IMG/VR virus record: IMGVR_UViG_3300035498_000693
Span: 1 to 17,898 of that record
DNA length: 17,898 nucleotides
Source of the DNA: a virus
Strand: one strand, 5' to 3'
The notes under the pieces were generated by a model. The model was given only the letters and a program-made list of their open reading frames with translations. It ran no database searches and was not told where the DNA came from. The position numbers and the translations under genes are program-made. Every line of letters begins with the position of its first letter. Positions within the stretch are counted from its first letter, which is position 1. This document shows, in pieces, positions 7,887-9,353 of the stretch.

Positions 7887-8759
7887 ATGGATAATAGTAA
7901 TTTAGGAACAAGAATGAAAACTTATTATGAACAAATTCCAAAAACAAAACTTATGAGAAGAACTCCTGTTATTATACGTATTGATGGTAAAGCATTTCAT
8001 ACTTTTACAAGAGGATTTCAGAAGCCTTTTGATGAAGTCTTAATTGAATCAATGCAAGAAACAACGAAATATTTATGTGAAAATATTCAAGGTTGTGTAT
8101 TAGGATATACGCAGTCTGATGAAATTTCACTTGTTCTTGTTGATTATCAAAAACTTGAAACCTCTGCATGGTTTGATTATGAAGTTCAAAAGATGTGTAG
8201 TATAGCCGCATCTATGGCTACTTTAGCTTTTAATAGGTATTTCGTAGAAAATACAAAGAATGAAGCTCTTGTTTTTACAGAAGAATGGTTAGAGGATGAT
8301 GAATTTAATCCAAATTATAGAAACAAAAAATTGAGAGAGTTATGGTTAGTACATGATAAAGCTGTAAAAAAAGGTGCTATGTTTGATGCAAGAGTCTTTA
8401 ATATACCAAAAGAAGAAGTTACTAACTATATCTATTGGAGACAATTGGATGCAACTAGAAACAGTATTCAGATGGTAGGTCAAGTAAATTTTTCTCATAA
8501 AGAATTGCAGAATAAATCCTGTAATGATATTCAAGATATGCTTATAACTCAAAAAGGTGTTAATTGGAATGATTTGCCTACATATCAGAAAAGAGGAAGT
8601 TGTATAGTAAAAAATTGTCTTATAGAACATTCCTATGAGAGTGGATTAGTAGTTGCTAAATTAAGAAATATTAATGAAAAAGAGTCAGCTTGGATTGTTG
8701 ATAAAGATATTCCTATCTTTAAAGGAGAAGGTAGAGAATATATTGAAAGATTAATTTAA
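7887..8759 (+). CDS. Thg1-like protein (tRNA-His guanylyltransferase family, 3'-5' nucleotidyltransferase)
   Basis: RBS AGGAGGT. Blocks 'VIIRIDGKAFHTFT', 'GYTQSDEISLVL', 'FDARVFNIPKEEVTNYIYWRQLDATRNS' and 'KRGSCIV' are colinear with the Thg1 signature blocks 'VVVRLDGRNFHRF', 'AYGQSDEYSFVF' and 'FDGRVVVYP...YLSWRQADCHINN'. Confidence 0.85.
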   Translation: MDNSNLGTRMKTYYEQIPKTKLMRRTPVIIRIDGKAFHTFTRGFQKPFDEVLIESMQETTKYLCENIQGCVLGYTQSDEISLVLVDYQKLETSAWFDYEVQKMCSIAASMATLAFNRYFVENTKNEALVFTEEWLEDDEFNPNYRNKKLRELWLVHDKAVKKGAMFDARVFNIPKEEVTNYIYWRQLDATRNSIQMVGQVNFSHKELQNKSCNDIQDMLITQKGVNWNDLPTYQKRGSCIVKNCLIEHSYESGLVVAKLRNINEKESAWIVDKDIPIFKGEGREYIERLI

Positions 8760-8774
8760 GATTGGAGAAATAAA

Positions 8775-9353
8775 GTGGAGAGAAAAAAAAGAACAATAGT
8801 AATTAGTGCTTTTCCTGCTTGTGGAAAATCATATATATATAAAAATTTTAATGGTAAACCATATACAATATTAGATAGTGATTCTAGTTTATATAGTTGG
8901 ATTTATGAAAATGGCATTAAAACAAGTAAGCGTAATCCAGATTTCGTTGAAAAATATATAAATCATATTAAAGAAAATATTGGCAAAGTTGATTGTATCT
9001 TTGTAAGTAGTCATAAAGAAGTTAGAAAGGCTTTAAGAGATAATAATATTAAATATTTTATGGTTTATCCAGCTTTAGATATGAAAGAAGAAGTGCTTAA
9101 TAGGATGATAAAACGTGGAAATGATAAACAATTTATTACATTTCAAAAAGAACATTATGAAGATTTTATTTCAGAAATTATTAATGAAAATATTATATTA
9201 GATAAAAACGCACCTTTTTCAAATGGAATTAAATATACCCCTTGTTTGGGAATTGAATTAAACAAAAAGACCCCATATATTACTAATCAAATGATAGATT
9301 ATTTATTAGATGATCATATGGGGAATCCTAGTAGTTTATGGTGGAATTATTAA
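8775..9353 (+). CDS. P-loop NTPase / putative (poly)nucleotide kinase (192 aa)
   Basis: GTG start with RBS TGGAGAAA. Walker A 'ISAFPACGKSY' (AxxxxGKS) and a following ILDSD Walker-B-like motif. Immediately downstream of the Thg1-like gene. Confidence 0.55.
   Translation: MERKKRTIVISAFPACGKSYIYKNFNGKPYTILDSDSSLYSWIYENGIKTSKRNPDFVEKYINHIKENIGKVDCIFVSSHKEVRKALRDNNIKYFMVYPALDMKEEVLNRMIKRGNDKQFITFQKEHYEDFISEIINENIILDKNAPFSNGIKYTPCLGIELNKKTPYITNQMIDYLLDDHMGNPSSLWWNY

Follow-up and report, generated by a model that had tools for sequence, protein, structure and literature searches.

The repair of tRNA is a classic counter-defence of phages. To our knowledge, the known phage toolkit (Pnkp together with Rnl1 or Rnl2) is limited to the healing and resealing of RNA ends, so that lost nucleotides cannot be replaced. 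The Thg1-like protein (TLP) of Bacillus thuringiensis, BtTLP (PDB 4KGK/4KGM), which is encoded by the bacterial chromosome, has 5'-end repair activity (PMC3701042). A role of Thg1 in repair alongside a 5'-kinase and an RNA ligase was predicted in 2010 by Anantharaman, Iyer & Aravind (PMC2904730), who described bacterial neighbourhoods of the type Thg1 - PNK-family kinase - (Macro) - RNA ligase, in which the 5'-kinase makes the 5'-phosphate for Thg1. TLPs of phages have been mentioned in genome papers since 2013 (PMC3601020), and a jumbo-phage survey of 2021 reported Thg1 in phages together with a proposed role in 5' nucleotide restoration (PMC7824862). In addition, phage TLPs are annotated as tRNA-His guanylyltransferases in 163 GenBank phage records and constitute the family PHROG 4717, with examples in large virulent phages such as Fusobacterium phage Fnu1, the Bacillus phages Bcp1, Bc431v3 (gp143) and G (gp378), and Staphylococcus phage PMBT8. 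The preliminary description of the DNA analysed here had stated that no well-characterised phage-borne Thg1-like enzyme was known. This holds true for biochemistry, since no characterisation of a phage TLP was found in the literature, whereas the annotated records, the PHROG family and the papers of 2010, 2013 and 2021 show that phage TLPs and the proposed RNA-end repair were already known and that the claim of novelty was overstated.

The window, i.e. the whole stretch of 17,898 nucleotides of viral DNA that was analysed, comprises the following features:

7124-7159 and 7162-7190, plus strand: terminator-like hairpin, followed by a promoter-like site (consensus scan)
7887-8759, plus strand: bacterial-type Thg1-like protein (TLP), ATG start, 290 aa (Pfam Thg1, PHROG 4717, BtTLP)
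8775-9353, plus strand: P-loop kinase-fold protein, GTG start, 192 aa (PHROG 4182, a phage-only family)
13406-14599, plus strand: ATP-dependent RNA ligase of the Rnl5 type (NgrRnl/DraRnl-like) with an N-terminal OB domain (Pfam, PDB)
15076-15582, plus strand: Pnk-type polynucleotide 5'-OH kinase, AAA_33 (Pfam AAA_33, NCBIfam, PDB)
15597-16181, plus strand: metallophosphoesterase (Pfam Metallophos / Metallophos_2)

The open reading frames of the TLP and the P-loop protein were found at exactly the coordinates given in the preliminary description, and the motifs quoted there were located at residues 31-40 (RIDGKAFHTF), 76-84 (QSDEISLVL) and 183-193 (YWRQLDATRNS) of the TLP and at residues 12-19 (AFPACGKS) of the P-loop protein. 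The Pfam Thg1 profile (PF04446), proposed earlier as a check of the 290-aa protein, matched with 110.2 bits and thus exceeded the cut-off of 29.2 bits (E 9e-32, profile positions 3-130 of 130). Matches to PHROG 4717 (E 1.7e-91) and to BtTLP (PDB 4kgk, E 2.7e-63) were even more significant. The Pfam profile Thg1C for the C-terminal domain scored 24.0 bits at a cut-off of 26.3; the C-terminal half of the protein aligned with BtTLP residues 124-236 (E 1.9e-27), the two proteins are collinear to the C-terminus, and PF14413 is present in the precomputed annotation of close relatives.

In the alignment, the catalytic carboxylates D33, D78 and E79 correspond to D30, D75 and E76 of BtTLP and to D29, D76 and E77 of hTHG1, and all three were invariant in alignments of 18 and 26 sequences of relatives. 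The residues R31, E15, K46, S77, K102 and R169 correspond to R28, E12, K43, S74, K99 and R131 of BtTLP; these residues of the activation and transfer sites show little or no variation in the clade, apart from K46, which alternates with arginine. The Thg1-like identity claimed for the protein is therefore borne out, with the catalytic carboxylates intact. Met196 occupies the position of M158 in BtTLP and N161 in ScThg1, which is the TLP-type residue at this position, and is likewise conserved in relatives. The E-value for MaTLP was 8.4e-15, and the values for the yeast, Candida and human Thg1 lay at about 1e-9 to 1e-11. Since the match to BtTLP is far better than those to the eukaryotic Thg1 proteins and Met196 is found at the position of M158, the protein is, judged by its sequence, of the bacterial TLP type and not of the eukaryotic tRNA-His-specific Thg1 type.

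The fold pointed in the same direction. For the AF2 model (pLDDT 73), the top 32 Foldseek matches in the PDB were all Thg1 or TLP structures, followed by a match with an E-value of about 0.1, and the best structural match was BtTLP (E 2.6e-20, TM 0.70-0.77 on the target). Compared to BtTLP, the protein comprises two additional segments. An insert of about 38 aa that is specific to the clade (residues ~123-161) follows the helix ending at BtTLP residue 119. In the model, this insert extends the helix and forms a second one, with a pLDDT of about 85; it contains no invariant residues and is variable or missing in some close relatives. The second insert, of about 15-20 aa, lies at residues ~245-265 in the C-terminal sheet region. 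Altogether, positions 7887-8759 encode a real and apparently intact Thg1-like 3'-5' RNA polymerase, which is predicted to be catalytically competent and to act as a template-dependent 3'-5' RNA nucleotidyltransferase. Based on the biochemistry of BtTLP (PMC3701042), it may repair 5'-truncated tRNAs of several identities.

At 90% identity, the large clade of this TLP forms over 8000 clusters (E <= 1e-10); the closest relatives of the protein share 64-76% identity with it. The carriers of the clade are phages that infect gut Clostridia, for the most part Lachnospiraceae, and it is abundant in the human and animal gut. The annotated phage TLPs of PHROG 4717 belong to the same family and are 42-47% identical over the full length, with the nearest TLP of a cultured phage at no more than 47%; compared to them, the TLP of the window represents a separate, very abundant gut clade with inserts. 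A megablast search of positions 7000-10000 against 50,697 phage records gave no match and thus no close cultured relative; only the comparison at the protein level was informative.

The set of ligase, Pnk and phosphatase that had been noted about 4 kb away from the TLP is real, and positions 13406-16181 hold a full healing and sealing set of RNA ligase, 5'-kinase and phosphoesterase. The ligase showed the Pfam domains PHA02142 OB-fold and RNA_ligase and a best PDB match to NgrRnl (5cot, E 5.3e-28), an enzyme that joins 3'-OH RNA strands at duplex nicks (PMC7261155). The kinase matched Pfam AAA_33 (E 1.8e-19) and the NCBIfam model for the bacterial Pnkp kinase region (E 2.2e-13), and its best PDB matches were the CthPnkp kinase (4gp7, E 1e-9) and T4 Pnk (E 7.8e-7). 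It likely supplies 5'-phosphate ends, and the phosphoesterase is presumed to be its partner for 3'-end healing, i.e. the removal of 2',3'-cyclic phosphates or 3'-phosphates. Healing and sealing are likewise combined in T4 Pnkp with Rnl1, a countermeasure against anticodon nuclease, and in Pnkp/Hen1 of Clostridium thermocellum, whose kinase domains are matched by the kinase of the window. In contrast to these systems, kinase and phosphoesterase are separate proteins in the window, the phosphoesterase is a metallophosphoesterase instead of a HAD enzyme, the ligase is of the Rnl5 type and not Rnl1, and the TLP adds the capacity to replace lost nucleotides. The bacterial neighbourhoods of Thg1, kinase and ligase (PMC2904730) are resembled insofar as all three activities are present within 8 kb. 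Unlike in those operons, the genes of the window are spread over an island and interrupted by unrelated cargo, and the scheme is fitted by the AAA_33 kinase (15076-15582) rather than by the PHROG 4182 protein adjacent to the TLP.

For the region around the TLP, a six-gene transcription unit at 7227-9953 with a start at 7124-7190 is suggested by the consensus scan, in which the next promoter-like site lies at 9965-9993. Since shuffled controls gave at least as many promoter-like sites as the region itself, this unit is tentative. None of its genes matched the PADLOC defence models.

The connection of the TLP with repair genes was also observed in relatives. An Rnl5-type ligase directly adjoins the TLP in three Clostridia loci (L183, L188 and L241), one of which (L188) shows the order PARG - TLP - Rnl - Tpt1/KptA and, as PARG has a macro fold, resembles the (Macro) neighbourhoods described for bacteria (PMC2904730). 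The order TLP .. Rnl .. Pnk .. phosphoesterase recurs in two other contigs (L013 and L198), and in both of these as well as in L035 and L185 the metallophosphoesterase is paired with a Pnk-type kinase. Furthermore, in a relative with 72% identity (P0166) the TLP is fused to the RNA-repair phosphatase domain HAD_SAK_2. The overall frequencies are low: a ligase lies within the fetched flanks of 7/80 viral and 7/80 genomic TLP loci, which is about the random expectation in a 150-kb genome. In most relatives the TLP is surrounded by unrelated small ORFs; when all ORFs from the 4 kb around the TLP were clustered over 81 loci, no neighbour was shared by more than 22 loci, and representative neighbours are apparently unrelated to RNA metabolism. 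The link between the TLP and the repair genes is thus loose, and a clearly non-random arrangement is seen only in the direct adjacencies and the fusion. Nonetheless, the idea of a repair island holds, because the TLP recurs with the Rnl5-type ligase, in a repeated gene order and in fusion with a HAD phosphatase; its recurring partners are the downstream RNA ligase, kinase and phosphoesterase.

The gene directly downstream of the TLP shows a different picture. A P-loop kinase fold is confidently assigned to the P-loop protein, which has a Walker A motif (A12-x4-G17-K18-S19, of which G17 and K18 are invariant in the family), an RxxxR-like pair and a DSDS segment that is conserved; this agrees with the earlier description of a Walker-A kinase-like protein directly after the TLP. 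D36 falls on the catalytic-position Asp that follows strand 2 and is invariant in Pnk-type kinases (hhalign probability 94%). Two further features shared by all Pnk-type kinases in the alignment are not conserved: the Arg of the DxxR motif, three residues after the Asp, is replaced by the variable L39, and strand 3 ends in S78-S79-H80 in place of the DAT motif. Instead, the family has invariant motifs of its own (LDSDS..SW, IFVSSH and RGN). No Pfam or NCBIfam model matched at E <= 0.01, including AAA_33, Pnk and other kinase models, and no PDB sequence matched better than E 0.3. Membership in the PNK family (T4 Pnk/CthPnkp/AAA_33) at the profile level was therefore rejected, and in contrast to the PNK, PSTK and NMP-kinase-fold kinases the protein belongs by profile to no described kinase family. 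Its own family comprises 2936 representatives and is apparently essentially phage-borne. The domain fusions in this family (DUF5662, weak DHH + DHHA1, weak GNAT, YunG-like) are heterogeneous and mostly sub-threshold, and an assignment of function from them was dropped.

According to the preliminary description, the TLP and this protein would form a module in which the kinase phosphorylates the 5'-OH of trimmed tRNA ends and the TLP rebuilds them. This proposal follows the logic of the bacterial neighbourhoods described in 2010, where the linkage of Thg1 with a PNK-family kinase is persistent (PMC2904730). The two ORFs lie 15 nt apart on the plus strand, possibly in one transcription unit. The fold, the Walker A motif, the DSDS segment, D36 and the weak DHH/DHHA1 phosphoesterase fusions of two family members would also be in line with such a function. 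However, the adjacency recurred in 0/240 loci centred on relatives of either gene (80 viral TLP, 80 viral P-loop and 80 genomic TLP loci). The viral loci were viewed with flanks of ±8 kb: the P-loop gene was adjacent in 0/80 and within 8 kb in 7/80 viral TLP loci, and the TLP was adjacent in 0/80 and within 8 kb in 10/80 viral P-loop loci, where after dereplication Thg1 was near the P-loop gene in just 3/33 lineages. In the genomic TLP loci, no P-loop homologue was found within 6 kb (0/80). The three closest P-loop homologues (70-75% identity) do not lie beside a TLP either, but adjoin a DEAD helicase and DNA polymerase B, or small ORFs without assigned function. A general association of the P-loop gene with repair genes was likewise discarded, as the raw count of 31/80 loci fell to 5/33 lineages after dereplication. 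In one lineage (L110), the P-loop gene directly follows a set of Rnl1, Pnk-HD and phosphoesterase. In both tight RNA-repair contexts of the P-loop gene a canonical Pnk-type kinase is also present, and the P-loop family is therefore not simply the 5'-kinase. Taken together with the missing Pnk motifs and profile matches and with the Pnk-type kinase at 15076-15582, these data do not support the two-gene module, which we regard as very improbable; the P-loop gene is not a dedicated or conserved partner of the TLP. Since it lies within 8 kb of the TLP in five of the six fetched viral contigs bearing both genes, and in view of its context in the L110 lineage, it may nevertheless act in RNA-end metabolism. 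We describe it as a separate accessory gene, predicted to encode an active kinase, in a variable slot of the island.

Altogether, it is probable that the protein is a member of the TLP clade working like the characterised TLPs within a loose RNA-repair island, with the P-loop gene as a separate accessory. The substrate, the order of the steps and the biological trigger that we infer for this would be as follows. The phosphoesterase and the Pnk-type kinase would heal the ends made by a ribotoxin. The TLP would activate the 5'-monophosphate RNA end with ATP or GTP and add Watson-Crick-templated nucleotides in the 3'-5' direction, thereby refilling against the complementary strand what was lost 5' of a base-paired RNA end, classically the acceptor stem of a 5'-truncated tRNA. 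Any nick still left would be closed by the Rnl5-type ligase, and the repaired tRNA would return to service. In the gene order of the island, the TLP comes first, followed by the Rnl5-type nick-sealing ligase, the Pnk-type 5'-kinase and the metallophosphoesterase.

The name of the family and the annotation of this TLP and its phage homologues would rather suggest specificity for tRNA-His, i.e. that the enzyme restores or adds G-1 opposite C73 of a host or phage tRNA-His and thereby sustains histidine decoding during infection. The addition of G-1 opposite C73 would be an ordinary templated TLP reaction (PMC3701042, PMC9508852), and several TLP-bearing phages encode many tRNAs (PMC3601020). However, the window contains no tRNA genes, and a scan of 60 relatives gave no tRNA-His within 8 kb of the TLP, so that an association with a phage tRNA-His gene nearby was abandoned. 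As the characterised TLPs favour 5'-truncated tRNAs without restriction to tRNA-His (PMC3701042), and both the recurrent adjacency to RNA ligase, Tpt1 and PARG and the fused repair phosphatase domain favour general RNA repair, a tRNA-His-specific role is quite improbable. A function away from tRNA 5' ends, either the joint filling, with the ligase, of gaps inside structured RNAs or the formation of 5'-adenylylated or 5'-guanylylated (cap-like) ends, would be consistent with the direct adjacency to the Rnl5-type ligase, whose characterised relatives act on duplex nicks (PMC7261155), with the confidently modelled helical insert missing from BtTLP, and with ligation via a 5'-App intermediate as raised earlier (PMC2904730). 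Against this stand the lack of invariant residues in the insert, its variability or absence in some close relatives, and the fact that the characterised TLPs all use tRNA-like acceptor stems; this function appears improbable. A joint reading is considered rather unlikely. In it, the TLP clade with its helical insert would pair with the Rnl5-type ligase, the TLP refilling nucleotides in the 3'-5' direction at internal breaks of base-paired RNA and the ligase sealing the nick, in place of a simple rebuilding of tRNA 5' ends. The PHROG 4182 protein would be a second, specialised kinase of RNA ends, and its positions beside the TLP in the window and after the repair operon of the L110 lineage would stem from a real but facultative role.

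The finding as such is thus not novel: comparative genomics had already put forward the repair idea, and phages commonly carry this family. For the biology of these phages, a TLP in a repair island would add the replacement of lost nucleotides to healing and sealing, and would imply that nucleases of the host or of competitors remove nucleotides from paired RNA ends. Better candidate partners than the adjacent P-loop kinase are the ligase (13406-14599) and the Pnk-type kinase (15076-15582). The abundant clade in phages of gut Lachnospiraceae and its recurrent pairing with Rnl5 make this a reasonable system in which the in vivo substrate of a TLP may be sought.

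The AT-rich window (G+C about 30%) carries a long run of tightly spaced genes on the + strand, reaching from 2884 to the window end. The coordinates and all four motifs quoted in the preliminary description were found exactly in the ORF list, and its gene identities, a Thg1-like protein (TLP) followed after a gap of 15 nt by a P-loop kinase-like protein, proved right. The genes discussed below are as follows:

7887-8759, + strand: TLP, 290 aa, ATG start
8775-9353, + strand: P-loop protein, 192 aa, GTG start
13406-14599: RNA ligase (Rnl)
15076-15582: Pnk-type kinase
15597-16181: metallophosphoesterase
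window end, + strand: endolysin (Amidase_2 / PG_binding_1), last gene of the run

The 290-aa protein is a bacterial-type Thg1-like protein. It matched Pfam Thg1 with 110 bits (cut-off 29.2) and PHROG 4717 'tRNA-His guanylyltransferase' with an E of 1.7e-91. Among solved structures the best match was the TLP of Bacillus thuringiensis (BtTLP, PDB 4KGK/4KGM; E 2.7e-63), compared to which the matches to archaeal TLP (8e-15) and to eukaryotic Thg1 enzymes (about 1e-9 to 1e-11) were far weaker. Likewise, the 32 best PDB matches of its AlphaFold model (pLDDT 73) were all Thg1 or TLP, with BtTLP at the top. Based on the numbering of the BtTLP structure paper (PMC3701042), the active-site positions correspond as listed.

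Active-site residues of BtTLP and their counterparts in the TLP of the window
Carboxylates: BtTLP D30, D75, E76; TLP D33, D78, E79
Transfer-site residues: BtTLP R28, K99, R131, E12; TLP R31, K102, R169, E15
Activation-site residues: BtTLP K43, S74; TLP K46, S77
TLP-type Met (Asn in eukaryotic Thg1): BtTLP M158; TLP M196

In alignments of relatives these positions are invariant or almost so. According to the preliminary description, a loss of the carboxylates of the 'IDG' and 'SDE' blocks would have refuted its proposal; they are kept, and the predicted enzyme therefore looks active. Compared to BtTLP, the TLP comprises an insert of about 38 residues (123-161), modelled (pLDDT about 85) as prolonging helix 100-130 and adding a second helix 147-162, as well as a shorter insert at about 245-265. 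Characteristic of the clade, the first insert lacks invariant positions, and some close relatives have a shorter segment or other sequence in its place.

The window ligase combines a PHA02142 OB domain with an RNA_ligase domain, and its best match was the RNA ligase of Naegleria gruberi (E 5e-28), the exemplar of Rnl5, which seals 3'-OH RNA strands at duplex nicks (PMC7261155). An Rnl5-type ligase directly adjoins a TLP 51-65% identical to that of the window in three loci:

L183: TLP, then Rnl after a gap of 18 nt
L188 (Acetatifactor MAG, contig JAZQEK010000098.1, 5102-8518): microbial PARG, TLP (62% identity), Rnl5-type ligase, Tpt1/KptA RNA 2'-phosphotransferase
L241: Rnl gene overlapping the start of the TLP gene

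The apparent operon in L188 lies between an ABC-2 transporter and a DUF1287 gene and looks chromosomal; it is a cellular cassette for RNA repair, compactly arranged about a TLP of the same clade. The window order of TLP, Rnl, Pnk-type kinase (best matches CthPnkp and T4 Pnk kinases) and metallophosphoesterase recurs in more compact form on two contigs, one viral (L013) and one from a Clostridium MAG (L198); the former also has counterparts of the window's 818-aa MVP-like gene and endolysin. Furthermore, a 465-aa protein on a 2.2-kb metagenome contig (P0166; L088, 631-2028) is a TLP, 72% identical to that of the window, fused to HAD_SAK_2, the 'Swiss-army-knife' phosphatase domain of RNA-repair proteins. 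Most TLP genes lie in mosaic accessory regions, and a ligase of any type occurs within the flanks of 7/80 viral and 7/80 genomic TLP loci. This frequency is close to chance expectation; the case for a link to repair is made by the direct adjacencies together with the recurring gene order and the fusion, not by how often a ligase is nearby.

The preliminary description had proposed the adjacent P-loop gene as the partner of the TLP; this was the wrong partner, as by conservation the two are not a module. Among the best 80 of at least 500 viral TLP loci, seven contain a P-loop homologue within 8 kb and none has an adjacent one; the two genes are at least about 0.8 kb apart and occur in either order. 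Conversely, 80 viral loci centred on P-loop relatives showed a TLP within 8 kb in ten cases and an adjacent one in 0/80, and after dereplication a TLP is near the P-loop gene in 3/33 lineages. In the 80 genomic TLP loci, no P-loop homologue was found within 6 kb. Of the P-loop homologues looked up, the three closest (70-75% identity) have no TLP context: the gene follows a DEAD helicase, with a family-B DNA polymerase nearby, or lies among small ORFs without known function; the annotated phage contexts revealed nothing either.

A weaker link is kept alive by two observations. Six viral contigs occur in both top-80 lists, and five of these carry the two genes at most 8 kb apart. In the L110 lineage (13 loci, 12 of them similar to L110 itself), the P-loop gene begins inside the end of a phosphoesterase gene, with an overlap of 4 nt:

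L110 (IMG/VR 3300045988_158231), 4035-8552: Rnl1-type ligase, 267-aa protein of unknown function, AAA_33-HD kinase, 135-aa protein of unknown function, 187-aa phosphoesterase-like protein, PHROG 4182 P-loop protein

This is a different RNA-repair operon ending in the same family, and six genomic loci also have its 267-aa protein close to a TLP. Both tight contexts of the P-loop gene contain a canonical Pnk-type kinase as well, which speaks against the PHROG 4182 protein being just the 5'-kinase.

The P-loop protein itself gave no sequence match in Pfam, NCBIfam or PDB. It is a member of PHROG 4182, a family without assigned function comprising 259 phage records, from T5-like, Aeromonas, Acinetobacter, PBS1/AR9-like and Staphylococcus jumbo phages, and 2936 representatives at 50% identity. 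The confident model (pLDDT 93.6) has a P-loop kinase fold. Conserved in the family are P14, G17 and K18 of Walker A, D34-S35-D36-S37, W42, F76-V77-S78-S79-H80 and R110, with R114-G115-N116 nearly invariant, resulting in an RxxxR spacing. A profile comparison with the Pnk-type kinases from these loci (94% probability, 77 columns) pairs Walker A with Walker A and D36 with the invariant Pnk Asp; the position of the Pnk DxxR arginine holds a variable Leu, and that of 'DAT' holds 'SSH'. Sequence criteria place the protein outside the PNK family. We infer an active kinase, which probably acts on a hydroxyl acceptor because a conserved acidic residue follows strand 2. Domain fusions in the family are heterogeneous and mostly weak. 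Two longer members (P0280, P0313) showed weak sub-threshold DHHA1 and DHH phosphoesterase matches on opposite sides of the kinase domain, and another is fused to DUF5662; these are hints of a kinase and phosphoesterase architecture, not a solid case.

Two SPFH-type genes flank the TLP unit. The 507-aa flotillin-like protein at 5596-7119 (+) matched Band_7 (E 2.3e-19), with the Flot domain under its cut-off and NCBIfam FloT at 230 bits against a cut-off of 700; upstream, at 3708-4424 (+), another metallophosphoesterase is encoded, which resembles the ApaH / PrpE / lambda Ser-Thr phosphatase type (Metallophos E 2.2e-14) and matched NCBIfam Ser/Thr phosphatase and Ap4A hydrolase models under their cut-offs. 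In Fusobacterium phage FNU3, a 'putative prohibitin' is located 650 bp downstream of the TLP. The 818-aa protein at 10030-12486 (+) matched Pfam MVP_shoulder (major vault protein 'shoulder'; E 1.1e-19), overlapping a Band_7/SPFH match, and had no match in PHROG, NCBIfam or PADLOC. Such a protein is rare in phages: of the 50,697 phage records searched, the only ones with a homologue were from three uncultured huge phages (462-735 kb), at about 42% identity, compared to 57% for that of L013. It may be more unusual than the finding on the TLP and its neighbour. Small distant PHROG 5321 paralogues (7227-7526, + and 9693-9953, +; pairwise E 2e-5) enclose a unit in which the TLP and the P-loop gene have one further small ORF on either side. 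A small protein with a weak PHROG 5321 match is also the commonest TLP neighbour in relatives (22/81 loci), which may point to a scattered family of small proteins at cassette boundaries in the accessory region.

The TLP is already in a public collection (JGI contig), named tRNA(His) 5'-end guanylyltransferase, and matches more than 8000 clusters at 90% identity (E <= 1e-10; a lower bound). Relatives occur on at least 500 IMG/VR viral contigs, the best 80 of which showed 64-76% identity on contigs of about 100-200 kb, and in 163 GenBank phage records, most annotated as such, with hosts including Bacillus, Prevotella, Caulobacter, Mycobacterium and Fusobacterium. Since the nearest relatives among species genomes belong to gut Clostridia, chiefly Lachnospiraceae (Roseburia, Coprococcus, Agathobacter and one Lacrimispora chromosome), gut Clostridia, mainly Lachnospiraceae, are the likely host range.

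A phage Thg1 gene was called unusual in 2013 (PMC3601020), and in 2021 Thg1 was counted among the RNA-repair enzymes of jumbo phages (PMC7824862). Anantharaman, Iyer and Aravind described in 2010 a PNK-family P-loop kinase as the most persistent linkage of bacterial Thg1 genes, sometimes together with a Macro protein and an RNA ligase, and proposed that the linked kinase makes the 5'-phosphate for Thg1 (PMC2904730). The mechanism in the preliminary description had thus already been predicted in print, and its novelty was overestimated.

Altogether, the reading with the best support is that the region forms an RNA-repair island of the phage. RNA ends would be healed by the metallophosphoesterase together with the Pnk-type kinase, the TLP would activate the 5'-phosphate and refill lost 5' nucleotides against the paired strand, and the Rnl5-type ligase would close nicks. 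The analysis establishes the family membership, the intact active site, the fold and the recurrence of the gene order; the substrates, this order of steps and a 5'-trimming nuclease are what we infer. The P-loop gene occupies a variable slot between TLP and ligase, here also holding two small ORFs and the MVP-like gene. The full-text literature searched contained no biochemical study of any phage TLP; novelty would lie in experimental work on such an enzyme and on the pairing of TLP and Rnl5.
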